Of a stretch of DNA of 35,935 nt, positions 1,933-27,976 are shown piece by piece. How positions within the stretch are numbered: position 1 is the first letter of the stretch; each line of letters starts with the position of its first letter. The notes below the pieces were generated by a model. That model worked only from the letters and a program-made list of their open reading frames with translations. It made no database searches and was not told the DNA's origin. Origin of the DNA: a virus; IMG/VR virus record IMGVR_UViG_3300035211_000022, positions 1 to 35,935 of that record. One strand, written 5' to 3'. Made by a program: the position numbers and the translations under genes.

Positions 1933-2115
1933 ATGTCCGACTTTCAGCTACCCACATCCGCCCAGGTGCAGCAGCGCAATGCAACCGAGGATCGCCGCCG
2001 CTCAGTGAGGAACCAGCAGCGGCGCACCAGAACTGCAGGCACCTGGACCGACAGATCCATGATGGCCGGCCCCACCTACCGCGGGCAGGGCTTGAATCGC
2101 AACCTTGGAGCCTGA
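1933..2115 (+). CDS. Basic small protein (60 aa)
   Basis: ATG is preceded by GAGGAG at about 9 nt. The ORF ends 1 nt before the portal ATG. Confidence 0.5.
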   Translation: MSDFQLPTSAQVQQRNATEDRRRSVRNQQRRTRTAGTWTDRSMMAGPTYRGQGLNRNLGA

Positions 2116-2116
2116 C

Positions 2117-7296: not shown

Positions 7297-8142
7297 ATGT
7301 CTAAGCATCTTTCAGCAGCAGCCCAGGAAGAGTTTGACGACGAGGTAAAACACGCCTTCCAAACCATGGGCGGGCTCCGCGATACCGTCACCGTCCGCAA
7401 TAACGTGGTCGGCGATACCTACAACTTCCGCAAAATGGGCAAGGGCCTTGCCAACCAGAAGGCCACCCAGGAAGACGTAACCCCGATGAACGTGAGCCAT
7501 TCCAAGCCGCAGGCCACCCTGACCAACTGGAACGCTCCCGAATACACCGATGTTTTCGACGCCGCCGAGGTCAACTTCGACGAGCAGCAGGAGCTGGCCT
7601 ACACCATCGCCGCTGCCCTTGGCCGTCGTCTCGATCAGCTGATCATCGACGCCATGGACAATGCCAGCGCCTACGCCGGCACCGTCACTACCGCCATCGG
7701 TGGCGCGGACTCTGGAATGAACGTCGCCAAGGTGCGCCGCGCCAAGCGTTACCTGGACGATAAGGGTGTGCCGGGCATGGACCGTCACATGCTGATCTCC
7801 GCGATCGGCCTGGAAACCATGCTGGCGGAGACTGAAACCACCAGCTCCGACTACAACACCGTTAAGGCCCTGGTGAGCGGCGAGCTGGACACCTTCGTGG
7901 GCTTCAAGTTCCACGTCATCGAGTCCCGCGACGAGGGCGGCTTGAGTGTTGGCGCCGGCGACGTCCGCGACGGCTTCGCCTACCACAAGAGCGCCATCGG
8001 CCTCGCCATCGGCATCGACATCCGCACTGAGGTGAACTACATCGCCAACAAGACTTCCTGGCTGGCGAATGGCCTCATGAAAGCGGGTGCTGCCATCCGC
8101 GACACCGACGGCATCGTTAAGGTCCAGTCTGACGAAACCTGA
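7297..8142 (+). CDS. Major capsid protein (281 aa, HK97-fold type presumed)
   Basis: GAGGA lies 7 nt upstream. The position after the scaffold, the size and the sequence style (..NFDEQQELAYTIAAALGRRLDQLIIDAM..) fit capsid proteins. Confidence 0.8.
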   Translation: MSKHLSAAAQEEFDDEVKHAFQTMGGLRDTVTVRNNVVGDTYNFRKMGKGLANQKATQEDVTPMNVSHSKPQATLTNWNAPEYTDVFDAAEVNFDEQQELAYTIAAALGRRLDQLIIDAMDNASAYAGTVTTAIGGADSGMNVAKVRRAKRYLDDKGVPGMDRHMLISAIGLETMLAETETTSSDYNTVKALVSGELDTFVGFKFHVIESRDEGGLSVGAGDVRDGFAYHKSAIGLAIGIDIRTEVNYIANKTSWLANGLMKAGAAIRDTDGIVKVQSDET

Positions 8143-8496: not shown

Positions 8497-9090
8497 ATGG
8501 CTTTGGCCTTCGTCCCCTTTTTTACATCTGGAGACGCCGCCATGCTCAACGACACCGACATTTCAGTTTGTTCTCACGCTCTTGTCATGATCGGGCATAG
8601 CCCCATCAACTCCCTTTCTGAAAACCCGACGGCTGACGAGCTATTCCCTGGCATCTACAAGGCTTTCCTGTCCGCCCGGCGCTGGACCTTCGCAAGTGGC
8701 AAAGTTGCCCTTTCCAGGCTTGTGGACGCCCCCCTGAACGAATACACCTACGCATTCCAGCTGCCCACCGAAATGCTCAAGCTTGACCGGGTTTACCCGT
8801 CCGGGGTGAGGTATCGCATCTATGGCGACAAGCTTTATGCCAACGTGAGGGAGATCGAGATCGACTACCGCTATCAGGTGGACCTGTCGATCGTCCCGGC
8901 GGATGCGGTAAAGGCCCTCGAGTACAAGGTAGCCGCGGATCTCGCCATCCCGATCACCCGCAAGGCGGACATCGCCAACGAGTACGAGGGCAAGTTTAAG
9001 GAATCTTGGTTTATCGCCGCCACCGCAGACAGCCAGCAGCAGCCGGCCGACGAGCCGCTGCACCAGCCGTTTATTAGCGCGAGGTACTAG
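8497..9090 (+). CDS. Tail tubular protein A / adaptor-like (T7 gp11-like; 197 aa, or 182 aa from ATG 8542)
   Basis: Its size equals that of T7 gp11 and it sits immediately before the large tubular B-like gene. N-terminal motif ..ISVCSHALVMIGHSPINSL... Both candidate starts have SD-like sequences. Confidence 0.65.
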   Translation: MALAFVPFFTSGDAAMLNDTDISVCSHALVMIGHSPINSLSENPTADELFPGIYKAFLSARRWTFASGKVALSRLVDAPLNEYTYAFQLPTEMLKLDRVYPSGVRYRIYGDKLYANVREIEIDYRYQVDLSIVPADAVKALEYKVAADLAIPITRKADIANEYEGKFKESWFIAATADSQQQPADEPLHQPFISARY

Positions 9091-9092: not shown

Positions 9093-11198
9093 ATGCCTAT
9101 CGTCCGCGCCCTACAAAGCACATTCAACGCCGGCGTAGTTGACCCGCTCCTGGCGTCAAGGGTCGACCTTGCCCAGTACTACCGCGGGATGCGCGTAGGG
9201 CGCAACGTGATCGTGAGCCCGCGGGGCGGTGTGCGACGTCGTGGCGGTACCCTGGCGCTGGGTGAGCTGCCACAGACGATTTCCAGGATCACCTCCGGGA
9301 TCACCGCCACCGCACCCGAGGGAGGCACCGCCGGCAACGCCAACGACGGCAGCACCGGCACATCCGTTATCTCGACCACCCCGATCAACGCCCTGGACCC
9401 CTACGTGCTGATCCACTATGACCTGGGGAGCGCCAAGACGATCACGTTTGCCGATGCCGTGGGGCTGTCCATGTCCGGCAGCTCGACCGACGAGTGGGCG
9501 ATCCAGTTCAGCGACGACAACAGCACGTGGTACACGCTGCAGGGCGCCCTGGGGACGATTGACACCGTGGCCAGCACCCACCGCCGCACCGGCCCGGTTA
9601 CAGCGCGTTATTGGCGTGTGGCGAAGGTGGGGGGCACCACTGTGGGCGCCGTGACCGCTACCCTGCAGGAGTTCAACCTGTGGGAGCAGTCCGGCACCTA
9701 CGGCAACGCGGTGCTGGCCGAGTTCGCCTTTAACGTCGATCAGGTGTACATGCTGGCCTTCACGGACTACAACATCGACGTTTACCGCTCCGGCGTCTAT
9801 CAGGTATCGCTCCGCAGCCCCTACAGCAGCGCCGCGCTGGAGGAGATCACCTTTACCCAGTCGGTGGACGTGATCCTTTGCTTCCACAAGGACGTGAGGA
9901 CACAGCAGCTGTCACGGTACACTGACACCGATTGGCAGTTTTCCGGGATCTCCTTCTCGAACATCCCGCAATACAACTTTGGCAGCGGCGCCGAGGACGT
10001 GATCAGCACCACCCGCGGCTGGGCCCGGTGCGGCACCTTCCACGAGGGGCGGCTGTATATGGGCGGCCTTCGCAGTCGCCCGGCCTCCATCCTGGCCTCC
10101 AAGACAAACAGCTTTTATGACCTCGACGAGGGCACCGGCCTGGATGACGAGGGGTTTCTGCGCACCCTGGACACCGATCAGCTCAACGCGATCCAGTACA
10201 TTGTTTCCGGCCAGGATCTGCAGATCTACACCTCCGGCGACGTGTTCTACTGCCCAAGCTCGCCGATCACCCCGGCGAATGTGGCCTTCCAGTCGCAGTC
10301 AGTCTATGGCTGCGCCGCCATCAAGCCGGTGAAAATCGACAACGCCGCCCTTTATATGCAGTACAACAGCGACGTATTGCATCGCTTCCTCTATGACTTC
10401 GGCCAGGACAGCTACGTGGCCATGCCAACCACCCTCACGGCCGGACACCTCATCGAAAACCCTGTGACCATGGCGGCGATCCAGGGCGGCACCACCGAGG
10501 ACGACAGCAACTATGTGATGGTAATCAACGAGGACGGCAGCGTGGCGGTCTACAACACGCTTTCCTCCGAGGAGGTGAGCGCCTGGACCGACTGGACCAC
10601 TGACGGCAACTTTAAGGCCGTGGCGGCGGTTGAGTCCGATCTGTACTTCGTGGTTCAGCGGACCCTGAACGGCGGCGAGGCATGGTTCATCGAGCTTTAC
10701 GACGAGGCCACATACACCGACTGCGCCCTGCAGGGCACGGAAAGCCCGGCCACGGACACGATCACCGGCCTGGACCACCTCGACGGGGAGGAGTGCCGGG
10801 TACGTGGCGATGGGGCCGTGCTGGCCAATGTCACGCCGTCCAGCGGCAGCGTAACCCTCGAGCACTCCGTGGAGGAGTGGGAGATCGGCCTGGACTGGCA
10901 GCCCGAGGTCCAGACGATGCCGCTGAATATGGACTTCCAGAACGGACCAACCTTTGCGGAAATGAAAAGGCTGGTACGGGCCGTGCTTTATGTAAACGAA
11001 ACCCTTGGGCTCATCGTCAACGGGCGCCGTATCGCGGATCGCCAGTTTGGCGCCGTGCTAAATACCGCCCCGATCCCCTATACTGGGGAGAAGGAAATTT
11101 GGCTTTCTGGCTGGGATCGTGAGGGGGTCGTAACAATTACGCAAGAGGATCCCGTTCCGATGAACATTCTTGGAATCATGTTGGAGGTGGAGGCTTAG
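9093..11198 (+). CDS. Tail tubular protein B / nozzle-like protein (701 aa) with an inserted discoidin-like module
   Basis: The N-terminus ..FNAGVVDPLLASRVDLAQYYRGMRVGRNVIVSPRGGVRRRGG.. is typical of podovirus nozzle proteins. Order and size are consistent. Confidence 0.7.
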   Translation: MPIVRALQSTFNAGVVDPLLASRVDLAQYYRGMRVGRNVIVSPRGGVRRRGGTLALGELPQTISRITSGITATAPEGGTAGNANDGSTGTSVISTTPINALDPYVLIHYDLGSAKTITFADAVGLSMSGSSTDEWAIQFSDDNSTWYTLQGALGTIDTVASTHRRTGPVTARYWRVAKVGGTTVGAVTATLQEFNLWEQSGTYGNAVLAEFAFNVDQVYMLAFTDYNIDVYRSGVYQVSLRSPYSSAALEEITFTQSVDVILCFHKDVRTQQLSRYTDTDWQFSGISFSNIPQYNFGSGAEDVISTTRGWARCGTFHEGRLYMGGLRSRPASILASKTNSFYDLDEGTGLDDEGFLRTLDTDQLNAIQYIVSGQDLQIYTSGDVFYCPSSPITPANVAFQSQSVYGCAAIKPVKIDNAALYMQYNSDVLHRFLYDFGQDSYVAMPTTLTAGHLIENPVTMAAIQGGTTEDDSNYVMVINEDGSVAVYNTLSSEEVSAWTDWTTDGNFKAVAAVESDLYFVVQRTLNGGEAWFIELYDEATYTDCALQGTESPATDTITGLDHLDGEECRVRGDGAVLANVTPSSGSVTLEHSVEEWEIGLDWQPEVQTMPLNMDFQNGPTFAEMKRLVRAVLYVNETLGLIVNGRRIADRQFGAVLNTAPIPYTGEKEIWLSGWDREGVVTITQEDPVPMNILGIMLEVEA

Positions 11199-11200: not shown

Positions 11201-11605
11201 ATGGCGCAATATACGATCCCGCTAATGATGGCCTCCACGGCCATTTCGCTCTATTCGCAGAGGACGGCCGCCAACGCTCAGCGGGCACAGACAAGGCAGG
11301 CGGCCACCGCTGCGCGCCTCGAGGCCCAGGGCGAGCAGATCGAGCGCCGCCGGCGCCTCCTGGCCACCCTGGCGGCGCAGAACAATGCTGCAGGATCCTC
11401 CGGGCTCACGCCCAACGAGTCGTTCACCAACATGCAGCAGAACGATCTGGCCATGTACGATCTGGACATCGCCAGGGCCGAGGCCGAGGCATCTGGAACG
11501 CGGCGCGCCTACCAGCTGCAGCAGGCCAGCACGACGGCGCAGGCAAACGCTGGCATGGCGAGCACCGTGGCGAGCGCCGGCTACCGCTATTCGCTGATGG
11601 CATAG
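11201..11605 (+). CDS. Internal virion protein (134 aa, gp13/gp14-like position)
   Basis: Hydrophobic N-terminus (IPLMMASTAISLY) followed by an A/Q/R-rich helical region. The gene follows the nozzle gene. Confidence 0.6.
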   Translation: MAQYTIPLMMASTAISLYSQRTAANAQRAQTRQAATAARLEAQGEQIERRRRLLATLAAQNNAAGSSGLTPNESFTNMQQNDLAMYDLDIARAEAEASGTRRAYQLQQASTTAQANAGMASTVASAGYRYSLMA

Positions 11606-11615: not shown

Positions 11616-13754
11616 ATGGCAGACATCCCGCGTTACAAGCCCGACAGCCCGCGCTTTCGCCCTGTGACCGAAACAGGGCAGGCCCAGGCCTGGGGATCGC
11701 TTGCGCAGCGCATGGAAGACTGGAGTGCGCGGTTTGCTGATCTCGGAGTGCAGCAGGCCCGCCAGGAGGGCGCCCAGCAGGGTGCGCAAGAGGGGGCGCA
11801 GCCCGGCAAGCCCGACATCCCCGACGAGCCAACAATCAACGTGCGCGAGAATGCCCGGCGCGATGCCGCTCTGCTGGCCCACAAGGCGCGCATTCAGTCA
11901 GATATCCGCAACCGGGCGGCAATGCTCGAGGCAGAGCACCAGATGGACCCCGAGGGGTTCCAGGCGGCCATGGAGGGGTACGGCGAGGGGCTTATGTCCG
12001 AGGTGCACGATCAGGCAAAGCCGGACGTGCAGCTGCTGCTGGAGGACTACGGCGGCCGCGCCTTCACCCGGATCAACACCAGACTGGCCGATCAGGCCTT
12101 CAAGGACGACGTGCTGGAGATCGAGAATCAAGTCACCTCGCTGTCTGAGGAGGCGCTTACCTACGCCAGGGACAACGACGAGGCGGGACTCTACAAGGCC
12201 AAGGCCAGGCTGCAGTCCCTGCAGGCCCAGGCGGTAAAGTCCAACATCATGACGCCGGCCCAGGTGGAGGCGCAGCTGGTCGCCCTGGATGATGCGATCC
12301 TGGTGGAATCTGCTGTTGGCGAGTTCTCGCGCACCCTGTACGGCGAGGGTATCGAGGAGGCCGAGGAGGTGCACCGCAACTTTCAGACGGCAGATCTCAA
12401 GTCACTGGGTATGGATGCCGCCATGCGGGACAAGATCGAGGGCAAGATGCGCGCCTTGATCTCCCAGGAGCAGGCCAGGATCAACCGCGAGGCGGCCAGG
12501 GAGAAGGCGGCCAGCGACGCCACCGTAAAGGCGCTGAGGGAGGAAACCAAGGATATGGCCTACCTCCTCGAGAACGGGCGGCTGGACGAGCGCGCAGAGG
12601 GGCGCCTGGAGCAGCTGCTGGAGCTCACCGCCGGCACCGAGTTGCACAGCACCCTTACCGACGCCCTCACCACCTACGACGCGGTGGACAAGTTCAACCG
12701 GCTTTCGGTGGCAGAGCAGGAGGCCTACCTGGATCAGCTGCAGGAGTTCGAGGACGCCGACAGTCTGCGCCTTGCCGAGAAGCTGGAGAAGGTGGCCACA
12801 GAGCGCCGCCGGGCCCTGGAGGACGGCAAGGGGCTGGATCTCTACTACTCCGACGGTTACGCGCCGGCACCGGCGCCCCTGGACTTCGGGGATGAGGACT
12901 CGCTGCGCGCCGGGCTGGCACTCCGCAACGAGCAGGCGCAGCAGGCATCAAGCCTGTATCAGTACCGAGTATCCCCGCTGCGTGACGGGGAGATCTCCAT
13001 GCTTACCGAGTACGTGGCAGAGGCCAGCGCCCCCGAGAAAATGCGCCTGCTTGGCATTATGTCCGGCGAGCTGGGCGGAAACTTCCTGCCCGCCATGCGC
13101 GACATCGACAAGAAAGGCGGTACCACCCTGGCGATGGCTGGCGGCCTGATGAGCACCACCGGCCAGGAGCCGGCACGGCTGCTGCTGCGCGGCGCTGAGA
13201 TCATGCAGGAGGCGCCCGAGCTGATGCCCCAGGGCACCGAAAAGTCCATTATGGATGCCGACATGAGCGAGCAGCTTGGCCCGCTGTTCCTGGCCAACCC
13301 ACGGCACCGCGGCGCCATGAATCAGGCGATCCGCGGGATCTACGCCGGCCTGTCGGCCAAAGAGGGCGCCGTGAAAGGAGAATATGATGCCTCGCGTCTG
13401 GAGACGGCGATCACCCTGGCCACCGGCGGGGTACACCGCTGGGAGGGCAGCCGCTGGGGCGCCAAGGAGAGCGTGATCACCCCGCCTGTTATCGGCTGGG
13501 ATGAGGACATGACCAAGGAGTGGCTGGACGAGAAACTGAGCCCCGAGGACATCGACGCGCTTGGCGGCGTGGCCGGGTTCAGTAGTGAGGAGTTCCTTAA
13601 GCTGTTCCGTCGTGACGGGGTGCTGGTGCCTGTTGGCATGACCTCAGATCAGGGCCGGCCAGCGAGGACGCGCTACCTTGTTTTTTTCGGGGACAAGCCG
13701 GTAAAGAGCGGCGAGGGAAAGCCCTTTATCCTGGAGTATCGCCATGACCTTTAG
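11616..13754 (+). CDS. Internal virion / ejection protein (712 aa, gp15-like position)
   Basis: Long helical, charged protein in the core-protein block. GGGGA SD upstream. Confidence 0.65.
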   Translation: MADIPRYKPDSPRFRPVTETGQAQAWGSLAQRMEDWSARFADLGVQQARQEGAQQGAQEGAQPGKPDIPDEPTINVRENARRDAALLAHKARIQSDIRNRAAMLEAEHQMDPEGFQAAMEGYGEGLMSEVHDQAKPDVQLLLEDYGGRAFTRINTRLADQAFKDDVLEIENQVTSLSEEALTYARDNDEAGLYKAKARLQSLQAQAVKSNIMTPAQVEAQLVALDDAILVESAVGEFSRTLYGEGIEEAEEVHRNFQTADLKSLGMDAAMRDKIEGKMRALISQEQARINREAAREKAASDATVKALREETKDMAYLLENGRLDERAEGRLEQLLELTAGTELHSTLTDALTTYDAVDKFNRLSVAEQEAYLDQLQEFEDADSLRLAEKLEKVATERRRALEDGKGLDLYYSDGYAPAPAPLDFGDEDSLRAGLALRNEQAQQASSLYQYRVSPLRDGEISMLTEYVAEASAPEKMRLLGIMSGELGGNFLPAMRDIDKKGGTTLAMAGGLMSTTGQEPARLLLRGAEIMQEAPELMPQGTEKSIMDADMSEQLGPLFLANPRHRGAMNQAIRGIYAGLSAKEGAVKGEYDASRLETAITLATGGVHRWEGSRWGAKESVITPPVIGWDEDMTKEWLDEKLSPEDIDALGGVAGFSSEEFLKLFRRDGVLVPVGMTSDQGRPARTRYLVFFGDKPVKSGEGKPFILEYRHDL

Positions 13755-16700
13755 TGTATTCGAGGATGACTACCAGAAGGTGATCAGGGAGGCAGAGCAG
13801 ACCCAGCACGCCACCCGCCGGGACGCCGCCGCCACCTTCGGCGAGGTGTACGGCGCCGCCTATGATGCTTTTGTGTCCGAGGACCAAAGCACCTCGAGGA
13901 TGAATCACTGGCAGGAGCATCTGCGCCCGCGATCCCGCAAGGCCGGCGAGCTGCTGGGGGTTGACCCCGAGGAGGCGGAAGACCTGGGCAGCTACTACTA
14001 CAGCCTCACCCGCAAGGATGACCCCCTGGCAAAGTCGGTGCGGGAGCTGTACGACAGCGGGCAGGTAACCTATGACCCGGGCACCAACACCCTCAAGGCG
14101 AACAGCCCGAGGGCGCGCTGGTGGCTCAACGGCTACACCGGCCGCGCCGACTATTCCAAGTATTTCAGGGCATACGCCCAGGTGCAGCAGGCGCGCAAGA
14201 TTGACCCCACCATGGCCAGCGATGAGCAGATCGCCTCCCAGGTCATGGAGAAGGCGAAGAAGATCCGCGAGGAGGCCGCCGCCACCATGCAGCGCGGCCG
14301 CGGCGCGTCTGGCGTCCTTGGCCAGTTCGCCGGCATTGCGGCCGGCGCGATGACCGACCCGGTGGTGATCGCCACCCTCCCGCTTGGCTACGGCACCGTG
14401 CAGGCCGGCAAGACCACCACCGGCACCCTGCTTAACGTGGGGAAGGCGATGGGAGTGGAGGGGCTGGTGGAAATGGGGATCGAGGGGGCGCTGATCCAGC
14501 CGTCCGTCTACGAGTTCAAGCAGGAGATCGGCAGCCCCTACGGTGCAAAGGAGTATATCCAGAACGTGCTGGCGGCCGGCGCCGGCGCTGCAGCGTTCCG
14601 CGGCGTGCTGGAGGGCGGGGTTCAGGGATACAAGTCCTGGCTCAAGTCCTACAAGGCCGCAAAGGGCAACGACGCCACCGCCCAGGCCGTCGGCCGCTTC
14701 ATCGACGAGCTGGAAAAGTCCCGCCTCAATGACACCCCGGACGCCCAGGACGCCCACATTGCGGCGATCGACAAGGCCGTGGAGGACGTCCGCCAGGGGC
14801 GCACTGCAGACGTGCAGCACATCGTAGAGGAGCACGTTCCACGTGAAACGGCCGCGCAGCGGCCTGTGGAGGGGGTGGAGCGCGTCCGGGCCGCCGACCT
14901 GGACACTGACGCCGCCCGGTTCCAGTACAAGAGCGGGGCGGACGCCCAGGGCGTGACAGAGCGCCTGGAGGGTGTGACGGAGTGGGACGACAGGCTGGCC
15001 GGGATCTCCCTGTTCTATGAGGACGCCGACGGCAAGCTGTTTGTGGTCGACGGGCACCAGCGTCTCGGGCTGGCCAAGCGCCTGGACCCCGACAATATCG
15101 AGCTCACCGGGTACCGCATGCGGGCCGCCGATGGCGTAACGCCTGAGCAGGCCCGGGTGGTCGCCGCGATCAAGAACATCGCCGAGGGATCCGGCCGGGC
15201 CATCGACGCGGCCAAGGTGCTGCGCGACACCGGCAACCTTGACCGCCTGCCGCAGCTCCCTCCCAAGTCTGCCCTGGTGCGGCAGGCGCAAGGCCTATCC
15301 AGGCTGTCCGATGATGCCTTTATGCAGGTGGTGAACGACGTGGTTCCTGAGCGGTACGCCGCGATCATCGGCGACAGTCTGCCGGACCCAGCAGAGCAGG
15401 CCGCCGCGATCCAGGTGCTGGCCAAGGCCCAGCCGGCGAACGAAACCCAGGCCAGGGCCATGGTGCAGCAGGTGAAGGCCGCCGGCTTCGAGCGGCAGGT
15501 TACCGCGGATCTCTTCGGGGAGCGCGAGATCGCCGAGTCGCTGGTGGGCGAAAAGGCCCGCGTGATCGACGAGGCCACCAAGCGACTGCGCACCGACAAG
15601 CGCCTATTCAAGTCCCTTGTCGACAACCAATCACGTATCGAAAATGGCGGTAACGTCCTCGAACATGCCTATAACTTGGAGGTAGCGAACGATGCCCAAT
15701 CAGCCCTTGAAGCCCTCGGGCGGCTCGCCTATTCCCGCGGACCTGTTGCTGATGCTCTCACAGATGCAGCACGGGCCGTTAAAGCCGGAAAACGCCCTGC
15801 TAGTGTCCTCCCTGACTTTCTCGCCAGAGTTCGTGATGCCCTTGCCGTGGGAAATGAGCCTGGGATCGCTCCTGGCGGACCTGGACGCGGTGGCCAAGGC
15901 CCTCGCTTCGTCCGGGGAGGCTCTGCCAGCAACGATGCTGTAGTTCCCCGTCCGCGTGTCGGGGATCCGGTAGTCCGAACCAGCCTTTCCCTGGAGCAGT
16001 GGGCGAACGCTGAGGACGCCTTTAAGCGCGGCCAGCCGTTCACCAGCATTGATGATATCTACCGCGGGGCCGAGGCGAACCAGCGCACCCTGGCGGCCTT
16101 TGGCGATCGACTGACCAAGGAGATCGACGGGGTAGAGTTCATCGATCCCGGGGTGAAGAAGAAGGCAGCCACCAAGGCGAAGATGAAGGCCAAGCGGAAA
16201 GAGGCCTGGGAGATCACGGACGTCGTGCGCGGGGGGTTCAAGGTCGACACCCCCGATGCGGCCGATGCGGTGGCCAGTCGCCTCGCCCAGGAGTTCGAGA
16301 TCCTGGATGAGTCCTGGAACACCAACGGCGCCGGCTACTTTGACAGAAAGCTGATGGTTCGCCTCAAGGACGGCACGGTTGCAGAGGTGCAGATGTGGGA
16401 GCCCAACATGCTGCGCGCCAAGGAGGAGTTGGGCGGGCACCTCCTCTACGAGCAGCAGCGGGCGCTGATGCAGGGCGGCAAGGTGCCGCCGGACGCCCTG
16501 GCCGAGTTCAACCGCCTCAACGATGAAATGGTGAAGCTGTACAGCGACGCCATGGCCAGGGCGAGCGACGACTGGGCTCAGGCTTCCGGCAAATCCCCCG
16601 CGTCCTCGAGTACCGCGGCGAAGGCCTCCACAAAGTCGGCCTCCTCAACGATGCGGCCAGAGTCCAGGACGTCGGCCGGGTTGACTAGCTCCCAGGCGCC

Positions 16701-17106
16701 AGACTCAGGCACCACGGCAGCCGCAACGCCGCCGCCGGCCGGCTCGAACAGGACGGCCGGGCGGCCTTCCCAGTACACGAATGTTGAAACTGCAGACAAG
16801 TCCATTGGATTCACCTCTAACGAAAGTTTAGCACAAACTAGACGAATTATTAACGATGAACAATTGCGCCGTGCGGTCGACCCCCTGGCAGACGATCCAG
16901 CCCTCCCGCCGGAAGTCCTGGAGCGTGAAATGGCCCAGGTGCGCGAGCTGCTGGAGCGCGGGGATATCGACCTGCCGGACGAGATCCGCATTAACCCCGA
17001 CACCGGCGACGAGGAAATGGTAGTACGATCGGCGCGAGAAATCTTTGAAGAATTGGACCGCCAGGAGAAAACCCTGGCAGAGATCATCCCATGCGTGAGG
17101 GGCTGA
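13744..17106 (+). CDS. Polyvalent internal virion / ejection protein (1120-aa ORF) with ParB-like and RelA/SpoT-like modules
   Basis: GGAG lies 7 nt upstream and the start overlaps the upstream stop. It has glycine-zipper/TM-like segments, the FVVDGHQRLGLAKRL motif and an alarmone-synthetase-like motif series. The 3' 530 nt are anomalous (see findings). Confidence 0.7.
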   Translation: MTFSVFEDDYQKVIREAEQTQHATRRDAAATFGEVYGAAYDAFVSEDQSTSRMNHWQEHLRPRSRKAGELLGVDPEEAEDLGSYYYSLTRKDDPLAKSVRELYDSGQVTYDPGTNTLKANSPRARWWLNGYTGRADYSKYFRAYAQVQQARKIDPTMASDEQIASQVMEKAKKIREEAAATMQRGRGASGVLGQFAGIAAGAMTDPVVIATLPLGYGTVQAGKTTTGTLLNVGKAMGVEGLVEMGIEGALIQPSVYEFKQEIGSPYGAKEYIQNVLAAGAGAAAFRGVLEGGVQGYKSWLKSYKAAKGNDATAQAVGRFIDELEKSRLNDTPDAQDAHIAAIDKAVEDVRQGRTADVQHIVEEHVPRETAAQRPVEGVERVRAADLDTDAARFQYKSGADAQGVTERLEGVTEWDDRLAGISLFYEDADGKLFVVDGHQRLGLAKRLDPDNIELTGYRMRAADGVTPEQARVVAAIKNIAEGSGRAIDAAKVLRDTGNLDRLPQLPPKSALVRQAQGLSRLSDDAFMQVVNDVVPERYAAIIGDSLPDPAEQAAAIQVLAKAQPANETQARAMVQQVKAAGFERQVTADLFGEREIAESLVGEKARVIDEATKRLRTDKRLFKSLVDNQSRIENGGNVLEHAYNLEVANDAQSALEALGRLAYSRGPVADALTDAARAVKAGKRPASVLPDFLARVRDALAVGNEPGIAPGGPGRGGQGPRFVRGGSASNDAVVPRPRVGDPVVRTSLSLEQWANAEDAFKRGQPFTSIDDIYRGAEANQRTLAAFGDRLTKEIDGVEFIDPGVKKKAATKAKMKAKRKEAWEITDVVRGGFKVDTPDAADAVASRLAQEFEILDESWNTNGAGYFDRKLMVRLKDGTVAEVQMWEPNMLRAKEELGGHLLYEQQRALMQGGKVPPDALAEFNRLNDEMVKLYSDAMARASDDWAQASGKSPASSSTAAKASTKSASSTMRPESRTSAGLTSSQAPDSGTTAAATPPPAGSNRTAGRPSQYTNVETADKSIGFTSNESLAQTRRIINDEQLRRAVDPLADDPALPPEVLEREMAQVRELLERGDIDLPDEIRINPDTGDEEMVVRSAREIFEELDRQEKTLAEIIPCVRG
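16578..16805 (-). CDS. Nested antisense ORF encoding a 75-aa acidic protein
   Basis: ATG (16805-16803) lies 5 nt after GAGGTG. A promoter-like element is upstream. G occupies codon position 1 in about 47/75 codons (hand count). The sequence MDLSAVSTFVYWEGRPAVLFEP...EEADFVEAFAAVLEDAGDLPEA looks globular. Confidence 0.5.
   Translation of the reverse strand: MDLSAVSTFVYWEGRPAVLFEPAGGGVAAAVVPESGAWELVNPADVLDSGRIVEEADFVEAFAAVLEDAGDLPEA
16825..16853 (-). promoter_or_regulatory. Candidate promoter for the nested antisense ORF: TTAATA-N17-TGcTAAACT (read on the minus strand)
   Basis: The -10 is at 16825-16830 and the -35 at 16848-16853, inside an AT-rich island. It shares the GTGCTA core with leftward early promoters P1 and P2. 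Confidence 0.4.
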
Positions 17107-17107: not shown

Positions 17108-19558
17108 ATGGCCAACATCGACGATTGCCTGAAAGGGGCCACAGACAAAAAGACGGCGGAGCAGCTGGGGCTGGAGCTGACCCACACCGCGGACGGGTTC
17201 AGGGCCCGTTTCACCGCCTCTGGCGCCTATCCGCTGGGGCAGGCAGAGAAGATGGCCCAGGAGGCGGCCCTGGCAGCGAAAGCGGCCGACATCGCCCGGG
17301 TGCGCCGTCAGAAGGGGCTGCAGACGCTTGCCATGCACCGGGCCATGCTGCAGGTCAAGGAGCACCCCAGCGGGATCCAGACCGGGATCATGTCGCTGCT
17401 AGTGAAAGACCTTGGGGGCCGGGCCGGCTTCTCCAATGTCGACTTTCGCGCCAAGGCGATCCTGGGCCAGTACCATGCACACTTCGCCGAGGGGCTGCAG
17501 AAGCTGAGAACTACCCTGTTTGGGCTTCGGCAGGACAGCGAGCTGGCCCGTAAAGTCGTTCGTGAGGTATTCGGCGAAAACAGCGGCGACGATCAGGCCC
17601 GGGGCATCGCCAAGGCCTGGGCTGACACCGCCGAGGAGGCGCGGGCTCGGTTCAATCAGGCTGGAGGGGCGATCCCCCGGCGGCAGGACTGGGGGCTGCC
17701 ACAGGTCCATGACAACCTGCTGGTGGGGAAGGCCACCCGCGAGGAGTGGACGCGCTTTGTCGATGATCTGGTCGACCACGAAAAGATCCTTGACGTCGAC
17801 GGGCGGCCCATGGGCGACCTTGAGCGGCAGTTAATGCTGGATCGCATGTATGACACGATCCGCACCGACGGCCTTTCTGATATCGTCGCCGAGGGGCGCG
17901 GCCGCATGGGGGTGGACGGCGCCGGGCTGGCGAACCGCCACCGCGATCACCGTGTCCTGGTCTTCAAGGATGCCGACTCCTGGATGAAGTACATGGACCG
18001 ATTCGGCCCCAAGGATGTCTATGCAACCATGACCGATCACCTGCACCGGATGGCGCAGGAAACCGCCCTGATGGAGATCATGGGGCCCAACCCGCACAGC
18101 ACCTACCGCTATCTGCGTGACTACGCCCTCACCCAGGGCATGGGCGAGAAGTCGGCTTGGTTCCTGGACAACGTATTTGATGAGGTGACAGGCCGGATCA
18201 ACGCGGCGCGCAGCGCCACGCTGGCCGACTTTGGCAAGTCCGTGCGCAACTTCCTTGCCGCCTCCAAGCTGGGCGCCGCCATGCTGTCCGCCCTGTCGGA
18301 CATCGCCTTTGTGAACAGGACCGCAGCCTGGAATGGGCTCCCCTACACCCGGATCTTCCGCCGCCAGCTGTCGCTGCTCAACCCCGCCAATGAGGCCGAT
18401 CGCCTGTTCGCCGTGCGCCAGGGGCTGATCGCGGACGCCTGGGTTACCCGCGCCCTGGCGGCCAACCGCTTCACTGAGGTTACCGGCGCCGACTGGACGG
18501 CCCGGCTGGCAGACTTCACCATGCGGGCATCTGGCATGAATGCCTGGACTGATGCCGGGAAAAAGGCCTTCGGGATGGAGTTCCAGGCATTCCTGGCGGA
18601 CAACGCAGACAAGGCGCTGGCCCAGCTCCCGGCCCCGATGAAACGCGCCTTTAAGCGGCACGGGATCACCGGCGAAATGTGGGACGCGGTACGCCTGGGC
18701 GACTCCTTCATTGATCACGAGGGGGCGCGGTTCTTCTCGCCCGATCGCGTCATGCAGCGGGCCGACCTGGAGGAGGGGGTGAAAAAGGACTTTGCCGCCA
18801 AGTTCCAGGAAATGATCCTGACCGAAACCAACTACGCCGTGCCCGAGCCTGACAGCAGGGCCATGGCGATCGTCCACATGGGCACCCAGCGCGGATCTGT
18901 TGTCGGCGAGCTGTGGCGCGGCGGCATGCTGTTTAAGACCTTCCCGATCACCGCGATCACCAACCACATGTACCGCGGGGCGCTGGCTACCGGGCTCAAG
19001 AGCAAGGCCCACTATCTGGCCATGATCACGATTTCCACCACCACCCTGGGGGCCCTGGCGCTGCAGCTCAAGGATATTTCCAAGGGCAGGGATCCCCGGC
19101 CCATGGACGATCCCAAGTTTTGGGCGGCGGCCTTCGTCCAGGGCGGTGGTGCCGGCATCTACGGCGATTTCCTCTTTTCTGACGTGAACCGCTTTGGCCA
19201 GGGCCCATACAAGACCTTTACCAGCGGGCCGATGGGCGAGCTGATCGATCAGTCGATCGGGCTCACCTACGGCAATGTGCAGCAGATGATCAAGGGCGAG
19301 GACGCCAACGTGGCAGGCGACGTGGTGGGGTTCGCCCGTCGATACTCGCCCGGGATCTCGCTCTGGTACACGCGCCTAGCCTACGAGCGATTGGTACTTG
19401 ATCAGCTGGAAGAGCTGGCCGACGGAAGCGCCGCCAGGGCGCGCTGGAGCCGCAGAGAGTCTAAAATGCTTCGTGAATACGGCAGCCGCTACTGGTGGGA
19501 ATCAGGGGAAGCCGCCCCGGATCGCGCCCCCGACATTGGAAACATTACCGGAGAATAA
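17108..19558 (+). CDS. Internal virion / ejection protein (816 aa)
   Basis: GAGGGG SD upstream. The C-terminal region has TM/Gly-rich segments (..FVQGGGAGIYGDFLFSD..). It is the fourth large ORF of the core block. Confidence 0.65.
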   Translation: MANIDDCLKGATDKKTAEQLGLELTHTADGFRARFTASGAYPLGQAEKMAQEAALAAKAADIARVRRQKGLQTLAMHRAMLQVKEHPSGIQTGIMSLLVKDLGGRAGFSNVDFRAKAILGQYHAHFAEGLQKLRTTLFGLRQDSELARKVVREVFGENSGDDQARGIAKAWADTAEEARARFNQAGGAIPRRQDWGLPQVHDNLLVGKATREEWTRFVDDLVDHEKILDVDGRPMGDLERQLMLDRMYDTIRTDGLSDIVAEGRGRMGVDGAGLANRHRDHRVLVFKDADSWMKYMDRFGPKDVYATMTDHLHRMAQETALMEIMGPNPHSTYRYLRDYALTQGMGEKSAWFLDNVFDEVTGRINAARSATLADFGKSVRNFLAASKLGAAMLSALSDIAFVNRTAAWNGLPYTRIFRRQLSLLNPANEADRLFAVRQGLIADAWVTRALAANRFTEVTGADWTARLADFTMRASGMNAWTDAGKKAFGMEFQAFLADNADKALAQLPAPMKRAFKRHGITGEMWDAVRLGDSFIDHEGARFFSPDRVMQRADLEEGVKKDFAAKFQEMILTETNYAVPEPDSRAMAIVHMGTQRGSVVGELWRGGMLFKTFPITAITNHMYRGALATGLKSKAHYLAMITISTTTLGALALQLKDISKGRDPRPMDDPKFWAAAFVQGGGAGIYGDFLFSDVNRFGQGPYKTFTSGPMGELIDQSIGLTYGNVQQMIKGEDANVAGDVVGFARRYSPGISLWYTRLAYERLVLDQLEELADGSAARARWSRRESKMLREYGSRYWWESGEAAPDRAPDIGNITGE

Positions 19559-19561: not shown

Positions 19562-21859
19562 ATGACTGAGTTGACGATCACCGACGTTACCCCGCGGATC
19601 CAGTATGCGGCCAACGCTGCTCAGGTGGACTTCACCATCCCGTTCAAGTTCTACGCCGACGAGGATCTGAAAGTCTACCTTACTCCTGTGGGGCAGGAGG
19701 CCGACGAGGCGGCCGACATTCTGACCATCACCACCGATTACACGGTGACCGGCGCAGGGGTAGAAGATGGCACCCGCAAGATCACCCTCACCAGCGGCGC
19801 CACCGAGGACGACGTGATCACCATCCGGCGCGATCTTCCGGTCAAGCGCCTTTCCGACTACTCGGATGTTGGGGACTTCCTGGCGGAGACGGTCAATGCG
19901 GACCTGGACAAGGCGATCATGATGATCCAGCAGCTCGAGGACTACATGGAAAACCGGGTACTGCGCCTCGCCGAGTCCAACCGTTTGCTGGCGCTTAATC
20001 TTGTCATCCCCGATCCCAACGGGCATGACGGCGAGTTTCTGCGCATCACCTCTGACGGCACAGCCCTTGAATGGGAGCCGGTCGACGCCGACGCGCTGAC
20101 CGCAGCCATCGCTGCCGCCCAGGCTGCCCAGTCGGCAGCTGAGACGGCCCAAGGCTTGGCTGAGGATGCCCAGGCGGCGGCTGAGACGGCAGAAACCAAC
20201 GCGGCTTCTTCTGCCTCGAGTGCCGAGGCCTATTCTGATATTGCAGCCGAGGCGGCAAGCAACCTTTCCGGGCTGGCCAAAGTTGGGTATGTGATCGAAA
20301 GCGCGGTGAATGCCTACCGGGCGGTAGAGTTCTACGCCTCCGCACACGCCCTGGACGTGGCGGACACAAGCCCCAAGGATCTGGAGGTTAGCCCCGATGA
20401 AACGCACCTGTACATCGTCGCCAGCGGCGCGGATAAGGTGCTGCAGTACGATATGACTGTGCCCGGAAACCCGCGATCCTCCGTGTTTGTTGGCGAGCTG
20501 GACGTGTCGGGCCAGGACGGGCTGCCCTATGGGGTGCGGATTAACTCAGATGGAACAAAGCTTTTCGTCTCTGGTGATACCAACAACACGATTTTTGCCT
20601 ATGACCTTTCAACGCCATGGGATATCACCACCGCCTCCTACAACAGCGAGAGCCTGACCACGGCAACCGCCGTCAGCCTCCCGTCCTTCGCGTTTTCCAG
20701 TGACGGCACTTTCCTTGTGATTAACGACGAAAGCAGCAGTTCACTGCATGCCTACACCCTCAGTACCGCCTGGGATCTGTCGACGGCCACACTGCAGAGC
20801 GAGCTTTCACTGGGGTCGATCGGCGGCTATGGTGGCGAATCCATGTGGATGCACCCGGACGGCGACCTTATCGTGGTGCGGGATTACACCAACGGCGCCT
20901 ATTATATCGAGCTGTCCACCCCCAAAGACATCACCACCGCCGCGCTGCGTGACACGGTGCGACTGAAAGACGGGTTCGGGTCTACAAGGTGGTTCACCTT
21001 CAATAGCTCAGGGACGCGCCTCTATACTTCGGACGCTACCAGCGATCAGGTGCAATGCTTCCCTACTGGGGTTGACTATGAAATGGGCAGCGCAAAATAC
21101 ACCATGATCGCCGGGGCGCTGAACGCCTCGCCCTATGGGCTGTGGATCAGCCCCGACGGGAAACACCTATTCGTTGCCAGCGCAAGCACCGCGAGGATCT
21201 ACCACCACCCCATCGGGACCGCCTTTGATCTGTCCACGATGGGGATCTCGGATGCGGACTTTTCAACCTCATCGCAGACCTCGGTCCCGTCAAGTGTCGT
21301 CCTGTCGAACGACGGTAAAAAGATGTGGGTAGGCGCCACCACCGGCGGCGTGGTCGTTGAATATGACCTTAGCACCCCCTGGGATCTGACCACCGCCAGC
21401 TATAACAGCGTAACCCTGGACACTAGCACCCAGACAGCGGTGACAAACGTAATGATCGTGAGCCCGGACGGGGAAGACTTGTACGTTACATCAAACCTTA
21501 CCGGGACCACGCTGTGGCGCTATCACCTATCAACCGCATGGGATCTGTCTACCGCCAGCTATAATGACCTCTATGATTTTTCTGGAGGCATCACCGGCAC
21601 CCTGGAGCATGGGTTTTGGACCCCGGACGGCGATTATTTCTACGCCCTTGATTCTGCCGGGGCAATCTCAGAGTTTTACGCCTCCTCGCCATGGGACACG
21701 TCCACACTTAGCGCCACCGGCGCGTCCTGGACCTTCCCGAGCGGCGCCGCATCCTTGATGGGCTACGGGATCTATGTCGATCCCAGGGGCGAGTACCTGT
21801 TTCACGCCACGACGTCCAGGGGATTCAGGTACCCGATGCACGACATGCTTACTTGGTGA
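19562..21859 (+). CDS. Tail fibre / receptor-binding protein (765 aa): T7 gp17-like N-terminal adaptor, A/Q/E coiled region, C-terminal repeated beta-propeller-like domain
   Basis: N-terminus ..PRIQYAANAAQVDFTIPFKFYADEDLKVYL..VITIRRDLPVKRLSDY.. The C-terminal half repeats LSTxWDxSTA about seven times. Confidence 0.75.
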   Translation: MTELTITDVTPRIQYAANAAQVDFTIPFKFYADEDLKVYLTPVGQEADEAADILTITTDYTVTGAGVEDGTRKITLTSGATEDDVITIRRDLPVKRLSDYSDVGDFLAETVNADLDKAIMMIQQLEDYMENRVLRLAESNRLLALNLVIPDPNGHDGEFLRITSDGTALEWEPVDADALTAAIAAAQAAQSAAETAQGLAEDAQAAAETAETNAASSASSAEAYSDIAAEAASNLSGLAKVGYVIESAVNAYRAVEFYASAHALDVADTSPKDLEVSPDETHLYIVASGADKVLQYDMTVPGNPRSSVFVGELDVSGQDGLPYGVRINSDGTKLFVSGDTNNTIFAYDLSTPWDITTASYNSESLTTATAVSLPSFAFSSDGTFLVINDESSSSLHAYTLSTAWDLSTATLQSELSLGSIGGYGGESMWMHPDGDLIVVRDYTNGAYYIELSTPKDITTAALRDTVRLKDGFGSTRWFTFNSSGTRLYTSDATSDQVQCFPTGVDYEMGSAKYTMIAGALNASPYGLWISPDGKHLFVASASTARIYHHPIGTAFDLSTMGISDADFSTSSQTSVPSSVVLSNDGKKMWVGATTGGVVVEYDLSTPWDLTTASYNSVTLDTSTQTAVTNVMIVSPDGEDLYVTSNLTGTTLWRYHLSTAWDLSTASYNDLYDFSGGITGTLEHGFWTPDGDYFYALDSAGAISEFYASSPWDTSTLSATGASWTFPSGAASLMGYGIYVDPRGEYLFHATTSRGFRYPMHDMLTW

Positions 21860-22197: not shown

Positions 22198-22659
22198 ATG
22201 ATTAAATGCAAGCTGATCCGCTATGGCAGTACCCCCATGGGCACGTTCGGGGAGCTGCACGTTGCCGGGCACAGGTTTTTCACGGTTGAACGGCCGTGGC
22301 TCAACAATGAGCCGTTCGTCTCATGCGTCCCGGCCGGGCTCTACGCGCTGGAGGCGCACGATTCGCAGAGCCACCCGGACGTATGGGCGCTGGTGAACCA
22401 CTCGCTTGGGGTCTACCACTTCGACCACCCGGACGCCATCCGCACCGCGATCCTGATCCACGTCGCCAATGTGGCGAGCGAGCTGGCGGGCTGCATTGCC
22501 CCTGGAACTGGCCAAGGCTGCCCCTATGGGAAATGGGGGGTGACCCATTCAGGCGACGCGATCGACAAGCTGCGCGAGATCCTGGACGGCGAGGAGGCCC
22601 AGCTGGAGATCGTCTGGCAGCAGCACGGGGACCGCGTGGCCACCGAGGGGGCTCTATGA
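22198..22659 (+). CDS. DUF5675-like protein in the endolysin slot (153 aa), putative cell-wall hydrolase
   Basis: The pattern ..GTFGEL..ERPWLNNEPFVSCVPAGLY..ILIHVANVASELAGCIAPG.. matches the DUF5675 family as recalled. Position is immediately before the holin and spanins. Confidence 0.65.
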   Translation: MIKCKLIRYGSTPMGTFGELHVAGHRFFTVERPWLNNEPFVSCVPAGLYALEAHDSQSHPDVWALVNHSLGVYHFDHPDAIRTAILIHVANVASELAGCIAPGTGQGCPYGKWGVTHSGDAIDKLREILDGEEAQLEIVWQQHGDRVATEGAL

Positions 22660-27130: not shown

Positions 27131-27976
27131 TTAAATGGTCATGCTGCCAGTGAACAGCCGAACAGAGGCAACGCGATCGATGATCTTGGAGATCAGCAGC
27201 TCCTTAAACTCTTCGCTGATCAGCTCTTCATCGCGGGCGCGCATACCCCAGCGAAGCACAAAAACCGGCTCATCACGGCTCGTGAGCATGCGCAGGCGCA
27301 GCTGGAACGGCCGCATATTAAGATCGGTCGACGGCTGGCAGTTAAACTCAAAGCCCCAGGGCAGCGGGCGGCCGGTGCTGGACTTTGCATTGACGCTGGC
27401 CAGGGTTGACCGGCTTTCGCCAAAGTCCTCGACCTTCGTTTCCGCGCTGCGCGCCTCCTCCAGGGTGATCGCCCGGATGACCGCGATCGCCTGGCTGACC
27501 GTGTAGGCCTCGTCGGTGGAAGAGATAGGCACGATGTAGTCAGCCCAGTCCTCCAGCCATTCCGCCATGTCGCGCTGGCTCATGTGGTTCCCGTCGATGC
27601 TCTCCAGCTGCCTGTAGGCCTCGAGCTTCCTGGTGGCCAGGTCGGCCGTGTCGTCGCCGTGGCCCGGGTTCATGCTGTTGCCGAGATTAAACCGCACCCT
27701 GGCAGAAAGTCTGTCGGAATCGATCATGGCGATCAGGGCGGATCCAAAATCCTCGCCCTCATCCACCCTCGTCTCCAGGTAGTCAACAAAATCATCCATG
27801 GCACTGGTGGTGAATTGCGCCCGGTACCGGAAACGGCCAGGGAGCAGCGGCTCAAAATCCTTAAGCGTGGTATTCCCCGGCAGGACCATGGCGCGGCCAG
27901 CGATGTCCCCGTGCACCTCCTGGGAGGCGGTCACAAGCGCCTGGATTGCCTCGATTGCTTTGTGGTTTTCTTCCAT
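27131..27976 (-). CDS. DUF2303 (YfdQ-like) family protein (281 aa)
   Basis: Length and motifs (..GRFRYRAQFTTSAMDDFVDYL.., ..MAEWLEDWADYIV..) resemble YfdQ-type prophage proteins. This is unverified. Confidence 0.6.
   Translation of the reverse strand: MEENHKAIEAIQALVTASQEVHGDIAGRAMVLPGNTTLKDFEPLLPGRFRYRAQFTTSAMDDFVDYLETRVDEGEDFGSALIAMIDSDRLSARVRFNLGNSMNPGHGDDTADLATRKLEAYRQLESIDGNHMSQRDMAEWLEDWADYIVPISSTDEAYTVSQAIAVIRAITLEEARSAETKVEDFGESRSTLASVNAKSSTGRPLPWGFEFNCQPSTDLNMRPFQLRLRMLTSRDEPVFVLRWGMRARDEELISEEFKELLISKIIDRVASVRLFTGSMTI

Follow-up and report, generated by a model that had tools for sequence, protein, structure and literature searches.

A Tas1-like RelA/SpoT synthetase module in an exchangeable cargo slot of a large protein encoded within the virion gene block of a podovirus-type phage genome

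The stretch of DNA considered here, hereafter ‘the window’, is the whole of the 35,935-nt virus record IMGVR_UViG_3300035211_000022, and our subject is one of its genes, at positions 13744–17106 on the plus strand, which encodes a protein of 1120 amino acids. A preliminary description of this open reading frame (ORF) had pointed to four RelA/SpoT-like motifs within it, and both the ORF and the motifs (nt 16150–16452) are found where that description placed them. The protein, hereafter ‘the carrier’, consists of an N-terminal region, a ParB-like domain, a linker, a RelA/SpoT homologue (RSH) module or ‘cargo’, a second linker and a conserved C-terminal tail. We read it as a polyvalent protein of the phage ejection block that carries an exchangeable, catalytically intact pyrophosphokinase cassette of the Tas1/Apk branch, and assign this reading as a whole a probability of roughly 0.55.

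The RSH module spans residues 755–950 (nt 16006–16593, plus strand) as judged from profile searches, an AlphaFold2 (AF2) model and Foldseek comparison, in agreement with the bounds of about 750–945 proposed earlier. Four plus-strand motifs follow one another within it: a Syn1-like basic helix, GVKKKAATKAKMKAKRK (residues 803–819, nt 16150–16200), in which K805 and K813 are putative ligands of the ATP phosphates; a Syn2-like strand, ITDVVRGGFKV (residues 824–834, nt 16213–16245), with the putative Mg2+ ligand D826 and with R829; a G-loop, NGAGYFDRKLMV (residues 861–872, nt 16324–16359), in which Y865 is followed by the family-specific D867-R868-K869; and a Syn4/Syn5-like segment, VAEVQMWEPNMLRAKEELGGHLLYE (residues 879–903, nt 16378–16452), with E881-x-Q883 on strand beta5, K893, H899 and Y902. 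Residue roles were assigned by alignment to Tas1 and to the roles described for FaRel2, where the counterparts are K66/K74 (K805/K813), D90/R95 (D826/R829) and E145/Q147 (E881/Q883) (PMC11782079). In the Tas1 alignment ‘IKSRERAMQK’ falls at Syn1, ‘KDLAR’ at Syn2 and ‘GEIQV...AKE...GHKYYE’ at Syn4/5, and the leading Arg of the classical RxK motif is missing from the module as it is from Tas1.

These four motifs are no accidental resemblance: they are the most conserved columns of the family. Among its best 150 representatives K805, R829, D867 and E881 are conserved in 100%, D826 in 99–100%, Y865, K893 and Y902 in 99%, Q883 in 98%, K813 in 97% and R868 in 96%; similarly, K805, K813, D826, R829, Y865, D867, E881, Q883 and K893 each occur in 45 or more of the 48 viral homologues, which are only ~35–45% identical overall. 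The catalytic acidic and basic positions, whose integrity the preliminary description had made a test of its proposal, are conserved and not substituted.

The relationship of the module to known enzymes becomes apparent only as homologues are added. With the single sequence, a PDB search gives a match to Tas1 (6OX6) at a non-significant E=0.92, aligned on the same motifs that the preliminary description had listed, and a word-indexed homologue search yields one relative (39% identity); with a profile of two sequences Tas1 is the top PDB match at E=0.008. An exhaustive HMMER search of 1.84 billion representatives recovers 1179 clusters at E<=1e-3, of which 554 also pass E<=1e-10 and 184 pass E<=1e-30. 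The best 150 representatives are 210–3023 residues long (median 840) and include the window protein itself in an identical copy; the domain is mostly embedded in a large protein. An alignment of 48 domain sequences, 34–48% identical to that of the window, was compared as a profile with the PDB and matches Tas1 (6ox6_A) at E=9.9e-21 (77.7 bits; profile positions 10–178 on Tas1 residues 244–436) and an exported Streptomyces alarmone synthetase (8vx3_A, SaSAS/SaEAS) at E=2.9e-6 (30.5 bits); beyond these two there are only a GTP pyrophosphokinase (2be3_A, E=0.44) and a putative GTP pyrophosphokinase (3l9d_A, E=0.81), with classical small alarmone synthetases (SAS) scoring no higher than 13.6 bits. 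The homology to the Tas1 toxin domain is thus near full length, and closer than that to other RSH families.

The predicted structure points the same way. The AF2 model built from this alignment for residues 755–950 has a predicted local distance difference test score (pLDDT) of 96.9 and a predicted template-modelling score (pTM) of 0.91. It runs from beta1 through the Lys-rich helix, beta2 (with D826 and R829), a helix, beta3 and a loop ending at Y865 to beta4, beta5 (with E881-x-Q883) and C-terminal helices; the five-stranded core of RSH synthetases has its basic helix and G-loop arranged likewise (PMC11782079). The G-loop lies between model strands 98–106 and 112–119, and Y865, at the end of the beta3–beta4 loop, is in this model the putative Tyr that stacks on the acceptor base. 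In a Foldseek search of the PDB the top 50 matches are solely RSH synthetases, with Tas1 first (E=2.8e-7, TM-score 0.68) and SaEAS, SAS1/RelQ, RelP, SAS2 and the catalytic halves of long Rel enzymes behind it. The comparison of predicted folds that had been proposed as a check therefore bears out the RelA/SpoT-like assignment: as modelled, the module is an RSH synthetase fold, and we are highly confident that the cargo is an active RSH enzyme of the Tas1 branch.

What such an enzyme would make is harder to say. Tas1, SaEAS and Apk2, the last a phage-encoded relative, make (p)ppApp, and by analogy we give even odds that (p)ppApp is the product here. The acceptor motif of the window reads Y-F-D-R-K where Tas1 has Y-S-G-V-N (GYSGVN), and so lacks the ‘GxN’ at Syn3 that characterizes Apk2, (p)ppGpp synthetases having ‘SxH’ at this place (PMC12226406). 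That D-R-K differs from the ‘GxN’ of the adenosine-specific Tas1 and Apk2 could be taken to favour a (p)ppGpp or mixed (p)ppGpp/(p)ppApp synthetase, which would impose a stringent-like response that halts host rRNA transcription and replication and would not deplete ATP. SaEAS (8VX3), the second-best PDB relative, makes both products, an alarmone-like response was proposed by Iyer et al. 2017 (PMC5512222), and a regulatory dose would harm the phage less than ATP exhaustion. We nevertheless consider such an activity unlikely, as the profile score of Tas1 lies far above that of any (p)ppGpp synthetase (77.7 against at most 13.6 bits) and as ‘SxH’, described as guanosine-recognising, is absent (PMC12226406). 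Motif swapping failed to convert Apk2 specificity (PMC12226406), so that these motifs predict specificity poorly in either direction.

Distinctly less likely still is a tRNA 3'-CCA pyrophosphokinase like CapRel, FaRel2 and PhRel, by which aminoacylation and host translation would be blocked upon DNA entry. The module shares its fold and ATP-donor residues with these toxic small alarmone synthetases (toxSAS), and phage-encoded examples of this type exist (PhRel), but tRNA-modifying toxSAS occur neither in the top 50 structural matches nor among the profile matches. Moreover, the basic residues R868, K869, K893 and R906 near the G-loop Tyr would fit the acceptor patch of alarmone synthetases, which is large and positive in those enzymes and considerably smaller in FaRel2 (PMC11782079), and a translation block at time zero would also stop the expression of the phage's own genes.

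The remainder of the carrier suggests what this enzyme is attached to. The N-terminal region (residues 1–320, nt 13744–14703, plus strand), delimited by homologues and hydropathy, contains two moderately hydrophobic Gly/Ala-rich segments (residues ~191–220 and 275–293) and is common to 21 of the top 150 family representatives; a protein of Vibrio phage ZCVPP1 resembles carrier residues 3–366 at 27% identity. The middle domain (residues 370–700, nt 14851–15843, plus strand) is modelled as a ParB/Srx-fold core with a helical extension. It contains VVDGHQRL at residues 434–441, of which DGHQR is invariant, and the only PHROGs match of the carrier, phrog_10691, to which no function is assigned, covers residues 325–696. 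The AF2 model of this domain, from an alignment of 13 rows, has a pLDDT of 77, and its top 50 Foldseek matches are all ParB, Noc, KorB or sulfiredoxin structures (best 7nfu_A, E=1.6e-6); the domain and 16 homologues, searched also as profiles, have no sequence-level match in Pfam or the PDB. As to whether it is of the DdrB type, the fold is that of ParB/Noc/Srx and a relative in BFVD is labelled ‘DdrB-like domain-containing’, while Pfam gives no ddrB-ParB-type sequence match.

Two linkers of biased composition flank the cargo. The first (residues 703–754, nt 15850–16005, plus strand) is rich in Gly, Pro and Arg (G 21%, P 13%) and lies close to the upstream recombination boundary of the cargo cassette, the identity between two related contigs compared below (L070 and L077) stopping at residue ~720–728. 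The second (residues 951–1015, nt 16594–16788, plus strand) is of low complexity (S 23%, T 15%, A 18%, P 11%) and leads into an acidic C-terminal tail (nt 16789–17103, plus strand) that is shared among carriers and ends ...AREIFEELDRQEKTLAEIIPCVRG. The pattern of this tail, ...D-[IVL]-[DE]-[LV]-P ... A-R-E-[IV]-[FY] ... L ... C-x-x-G/end, closes carriers whatever their cargo, be it RSH, a Zeta toxin or a second RSH-like type (RSH2). All complete cargo-bearing carriers have it, which indicates that the tail belongs to the carrier; the idea that the C-terminal ~100 residues form a cis-acting immunity domain was discarded on finding that Zeta and RSH2 carriers end likewise. The tail is also seen behind the module in some short proteins (P0054, P0051); it may act as a packaging signal or touch the next core protein.

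Thus two disparate domains, a ParB/Srx fold and an RSH synthetase, are joined in one polypeptide that is encoded among virion structural genes. Since a ParB/Srx-fold domain accompanies the RSH domain, the 1120-residue protein is, on the modelled folds, a phage polyvalent protein.

The position of the gene speaks to delivery. It lies between the gene for a tail tubular B-like protein (701 residues, 9093–11198; phrog_376 tail protein, E=5.9e-124) and that for the tail fibre (765 residues, 19562–21859; tail-fibre N-terminal phrogs, E down to 1e-27), as podovirus core-protein genes do. In T7-like phages this slot holds the ejected core proteins (PMC8954989), and by gene order the 1120-residue gene fills it. 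The putative internal-protein block begins with genes for proteins of 134 residues (11201–11605; phrog_418 ‘internal virion protein’, E=1.3e-4) and 712 residues (11616–13754; phrog_992 ‘head protein’, E=2.2e-18), the latter overlapped by the start of the carrier gene by 11 nt, and the next gene, for an 816-residue protein (17108–19558; phrog_684 ‘virion structural protein’, E=2.9e-188), begins 1 nt past the carrier stop. The 134-residue protein is the only one of these neighbours to match an internal-protein phrog. Further upstream are genes for the terminase large subunit (TerL, 21–1067), a portal-like protein (2105–3697), the major head protein (MCP, 7297–8142) and a tail tubular A-like protein of 197 residues (8497–9090; phrog_394 tail protein, E=3.8e-35), all on the plus strand like the rest of the block.

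The preliminary description had presumed that the carrier is injected. Its gene position, the synteny in 23 of 28 related contigs described below and the predicted co-injection of the polyvalent class all lend indirect support to this view, from which we infer injection itself. On such synteny and analogy, packaging of the carrier in the virion and its ejection appear probable.

The window holds a complete genome. An exact 127-nt direct repeat stands at both its ends (1–127 = 35809–35935), and the carrier protein is identical to one on a 35,838-bp Logan metagenomic contig; together these indicate a complete genome of ~35.8 kb (~35,808 bp without the second repeat copy), either assembled circularly or bearing a true terminal repeat. 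The end junction is flanked by genes for the terminase small (TerS, 34636–35223) and large subunits. The minus strand encodes a single-stranded DNA-binding protein, a Gam-like protein, an exonuclease and a Dam-type methylase, while no integrase/lysogeny module, DNA polymerase or RNA polymerase was seen among the window ORFs scanned, no tRNA genes were found in the window, and megablast of its structural region against GenBank phages gave no match.

Comparison with related genomes shows both how stable the carrier is and how variable its cargo. A probe with the module finds relatives encoded on 28 IMG/VR contigs, and in 23 of these the module sits at residues ~700–1050 of a protein of 1046–1269 residues, within the conserved order MCP, tail tubular A, tail tubular B, carrier, 816-residue homologue, fibre. 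Across those contigs MCP identity is only ~40–60% and GC content ranges over 39–65%; maintenance of the order despite such divergence suggests that the fusion is old and has been maintained. Cultured relatives, namely Prochlorococcus phages P-SCSP1, Vibrio phage ZCVPP1, Ruegeria phage 45A6 and ‘Dunaliella viridis virus SI2’, share the N-terminal or ParB-like parts only; in the Autographiviridae phage P-SCSP1f the ParB-like domain lies in a 2563-residue coding sequence downstream of the tail tubular protein gp12.

To sample the clade independently of the module we used the ParB-like domain as a probe, which matched 509 IMG/VR stretches, of which 80 were fetched; the cargo counts that follow are phmmer-based and cover the 68 carrier genes that are complete at their 3' end. 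A Tas1-like module is the cargo in 22 of the 68, and in 29 its place is taken by a Zeta-toxin-like P-loop kinase of two sub-types: a representative matches PF06414 at E=6.5e-35, and the other Zeta cargos relate to it at E 1e-5 to 1e-79 and have Walker A motifs (GGGGASGKG and GPPAAGKS in the two sub-types). Four more carry RSH2, a divergent RSH-like cargo without the G-loop Tyr, which keeps the Lys, Asp, Arg and Glu positions with E-W-Y in place of E-V-Q; it has no match among PDB sequences, its homology being backed solely by hhalign (91% probability, E=1e-6). The remaining 13 have no cargo, with only 105–240 residues past the ParB-like domain. Carriers with Zeta cargo include those of L038 (3070–6429), L039, L041, L043, L055, L070 and L071, and those with RSH2 are L083:4696-8226, L094:4807-8319, L099:4696-8232 and L102:4696-8232; in addition, a carrier truncated at its 3' end shows a weak match to ART-PolyVal together with the motif HESGH.

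The exchange can be seen at the DNA level by comparing L070, with Zeta cargo, and L077, with RSH cargo: the two are 97–98% identical as far as codon ~720 of the carrier, wholly dissimilar throughout the cassette and 81% identical once more in the next gene. The module thus sits in an internal, exchangeable cargo slot. Zeta toxins phosphorylate UDP-N-acetylglucosamine. That the module alternates with a second toxin that uses ATP speaks, more strongly than any other comparative evidence, for an effector and against a structural element. The cargo-less carriers bear on the opposite view, that the module descends from an RSH enzyme but has lost its activity and is kept only as a folded spacer in a virion protein. 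This view might draw on the failure of the Pfam RelA_SpoT model to detect the domain and on the missing first Arg of RxK, but Tas1 is active without that Arg, the other donor, metal and acceptor residues are near-invariant across more than 150 clusters and the 48 viral copies at ~35–45% identity, and the 13 of 68 carriers that do without cargo show that no spacer is needed. We regard it as very improbable.

Toxins of this kind are usually accompanied by protection for the producer: at Apk1/Apk2 loci Tis1-like and/or Aph1 genes lie beside the toxin, and 89% of MuF toxins have an immunity gene (PMC10083569). We detected no such gene here. No small ORF adjoins the carrier gene in the window; Pfam searches of ten unassigned window ORFs revealed no HD/small alarmone hydrolase (SAH) or Tis1-like protein; and when 23 small ORFs were concatenated and compared with PDB sequences, only spurious weak matches appeared, none to a hydrolase or Tis1, these searches being of limited sensitivity, with single sequences and for proteins that, in the case of Tis1, are diverse, and the PDB search leaving out three doubtful ORFs. 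A small ORF downstream of the L077 carrier was entertained as a cargo-linked immunity gene and set aside as the frameshift-split N-terminus of the next virion gene.

If real, the absence of immunity fits an enzyme aimed at a host that the phage will kill. It also bears on the view that the cassette acts elsewhere, whether released at lysis, borne by particles as a weapon in interbacterial or superinfection conflict, or late in the producer cell. Such action has been debated for MuF polymorphic toxins, of which neither the function nor the path of delivery is settled in the literature (PMC10083569), and cassette polymorphism is typical of interbacterial polymorphic toxins. However, toxin loci serving competition normally need the adjacent immunity gene that is lacking here, there is no integrase/lysogeny module among the ORFs scanned, and the gene stands where T7-like phages encode their ejected core proteins, so that we think action elsewhere doubtful.

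Under the reading we prefer, that of an ejected polyvalent protein with a Tas1/Apk-branch cassette, the carrier would be made late and packaged in the capsid, to be ejected through the tail with the DNA and the other core proteins, partly unfolded as other podovirus core proteins are, its linkers permitting passage as beads on a string. The domain of ~200 residues would then refold in the host cytoplasm and transfer the beta-gamma pyrophosphate of ATP to the 3'-OH of a purine nucleotide, the likeliest acceptors being ATP and ADP and the likeliest product (p)ppApp. ATP would be drawn down, purine synthesis and transcription would be perturbed, and by this rapid shut-down the host or its defences might be crippled ahead of any phage gene expression. 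Both the substrate and the benefit to the phage are our inference.

Several observations weigh against this reading. Pfam, PF04607 included, matches neither the whole protein nor the isolated module (residues 735–948) even at E<=10, such that the Pfam search suggested in the preliminary description comes out negative, and PADLOC and PHROGs offer nothing informative for the module; PF04607, however, reaches only 2 of 48 family members (E~0.04), which explains why annotation pipelines miss the family, and the Pfam failure reflects the reach of the model, not the fold. The 712- and 816-residue neighbours have no meaningful PDB sequence match, the solved ejection proteins of T7 and P22 included, and a tblastn search with the module against 50,697 deposited phage genomes found no match. 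D-R-K is unlike both ‘GxN’ and ‘SxH’, so the sequence does not reveal the product. Finally, a drain on ATP of Tas1 grade at time zero would starve the phage too, and no Tis1-, Aph1- or SAH-like gene was detected; if real, this absence sharpens the objection of self-harm.

A more novel possibility is that the conserved carrier of this clade is a phage counterpart of polymorphic secretion-system toxins, with a slot open to recombination (RSH, Zeta-type kinase, RSH2 or empty) that needs no immunity gene, and that the RSH cargo, with its invariant Y-F-D-R-K, pyrophosphorylates some other acceptor, for example an immune-signalling nucleotide or a host metabolite. The cargo would then be a pre-expressed counter-defence enzyme and not a Tas1-like depleter of ATP. 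We offer this suggestion as speculative, and think it, taken as a whole, improbable.

Other genes of the window carry features of their own. The tail fibre has a conserved N-terminal adaptor (residues 5–130; several tail-fibre phrogs) and at its C-terminus a lactonase/SGL-like beta-propeller (PF10282, E=5.5e-9; PF08450, E=3.8e-5) that could be an enzymatic or receptor-binding head, and residues ~71–177 of the tail tubular B-like protein form an F5/8 type C/NedA-like galactose-binding domain (PF22633, E=1.9e-6), so that the tail tube or nozzle may bind carbohydrate. In the early region, a 245-residue ORF (29042–29779, minus strand) matches phrog_1926, ‘released from the phage upon host infection’, at E=1.3e-10, has a weak match to the large-polyvalent-protein-associated Pfam family LPD29 (E=0.003) and contains a PAPAPEPAPEPEP linker; it may be a second delivered protein. 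Also present are a DUF5675 protein (22198–22659, plus strand; from the precomputed Pfam annotation of the contig, and phrog_1501) and a DUF2303 protein (27131–27976, minus strand; PF10065, E=1.5e-42).

The synthetase family occurs in other proteins as well, including a MuF fusion (P0004), a portal fusion and giant proteins with LPD38 or ART-PolyVal domains. In the portal fusion (L031:8591-10558, from a metagenome-assembled genome of Rhodoplanes sp., NZ_JACAAX010000007.1), a 655-residue protein has a portal domain at residues 52–381 (PF04860, E=7e-93) and a Tas1-like module at its C-terminus (residues 471–655) that is 39% identical to that of the window; it is another capsid-internal carrier for the domain. 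In two giant proteins on ~64-kb viral contigs, of 2902 residues (L016:8024-16732) and 2481 residues (L027:8225-15670), the module lies upstream of the ParB-like domain, the reverse of the order in the window protein. PAAR, MuF, LXG, XopAD, DUF4157 and Sec are the known carrier types of such domains, to which a ParB-like internal protein and a portal fusion are added here. Pfam-based annotation overlooks this family of Tas1-type domains, which numbers over 1000 clusters and has many of its members within very large phage proteins.

Work on MuF and Apk2 leaves it unanswered whether alarmone synthetases are indeed injected by phages, and how the infection would be affected (PMC10083569). The present clade is a tractable natural system in which to ask it: genomes are ~36 kb, the carrier is fixed in the ejection-protein block, no immunity gene is detected, and nature supplies near-isogenic pairs, distinguished by the cassette alone (RSH, Zeta kinase or none), which should aid a test. 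The value of the system is tempered by the lack of a cultured phage bearing the module, as of any match to it among deposited phage genomes.

Much of the above has precedents. The Tas1/Apk kind of enzyme, RelA/SpoT domains in injected polyvalent proteins and MuF-fused Apk2 are all known already, and the preliminary description, in remarking that it knew of no such module described for a podovirus internal core or ejection protein, overstated the novelty in so far as RelA/SpoT domains were recorded in polyvalent proteins in 2017 (PMC5512222) and Apk2 has been characterised. We found no paper that puts a module of this sort among the internal or ejection proteins of podoviruses. Nor did we find described in the literature a ParB-like carrier in a podovirus internal block of T7-like order, an internal exchangeable slot shared with Zeta toxin, the lack of an immunity gene or the Y-F-D-R-K acceptor signature.

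The concept itself comes from the computational survey of polyvalent proteins by Iyer, Burroughs, Anand, de Souza and Aravind (2017), which predicted their co-injection with DNA and listed RelA/SpoT, DdrB-ParB and LPD38 among phage-specific components found beside virion genes (PMC5512222). The carrier embodies the same concept and the same domains, a ParB/Srx fold with a RelA/SpoT nucleotidyltransferase, and proteins of ~1000–1300 residues from uncultured Caudovirales that UniProt/BFVD labels DdrB-like, ART-PolyVal-like or RelA/SpoT match the model. The survey's examples, in contrast, come from Spirochaete and epsilonproteobacterial (pro)phages and from MuF fusions, with no podovirus clade of T7-like order and no single exchangeable slot in which RSH and Zeta toxin alternate (PMC5512222). 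The survey reads the domain as (p)ppGpp-type because it predates Tas1.

Free-standing toxSAS, such as CapRel and PhRel/Gp29 of mycobacteriophage Phrann, are like the module in their RSH fold and in being encoded by phages or prophages. They are, however, small cytoplasmic toxin–antitoxin or defence proteins of the lysogen, several of them targeting tRNA, rather than fusions within a virion block, and none of them ranks with the module's nearest matches by structure or profile. As to the mode of delivery, T7 gp16 is ejected, has a transglycosylase domain and passes its C-terminal part to the cytoplasm after unfolding and refolding (PMC8954989), and the ADP-ribosyltransferase Alt of T4 is packaged in the capsid and injected with the DNA. 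The chemistry of both differs from that predicted for the carrier, which has no sequence similarity to solved ejection proteins and whose own ejection is proposed by analogy.

Closer to the module are the Apk2 enzymes, MuF-fused (p)ppApp synthetases of temperate phages of B. caccae, S. pneumoniae and M. haemolytica, in which a Tas1-family domain is fused to a capsid-internal protein; they are biochemically characterised and suspected of being co-injected (PMC10083569, PMC12226406). In Apk2 the toxin is C-terminal to MuF and is followed by Tis1-like and/or Aph1 genes, in prophages, whereas the module of the window is internal, flanked by linkers and followed by the C-terminal tail, in a ParB-like carrier of a podovirus-type block; Pfam finds neither a MuF nor a PAAR domain in the window protein.

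Closest of all is Tas1 (Apk1; 6OX6), the adenosine 3'-pyrophosphokinase that serves as a type VI secretion system (T6SS) effector of Pseudomonas aeruginosa, which is both the best profile match and the best structural match. The two are only ~20% identical, and Tas1 has a 24-residue insertion before GHKYYE; it is delivered by PAAR and the T6SS with Tis1 as its immunity protein, unlike the carrier, a protein of the virion block with no PAAR domain and no adjacent immunity gene. Common to both are a ‘P-x-K’ Syn1 without the leading Arg, a D-x-x-R Syn2, the G-loop Tyr, E-x-Q and GH-x-x-Y-E, and Tas1, too, is an enzyme module placed at the end of a vehicle that injects another cell.

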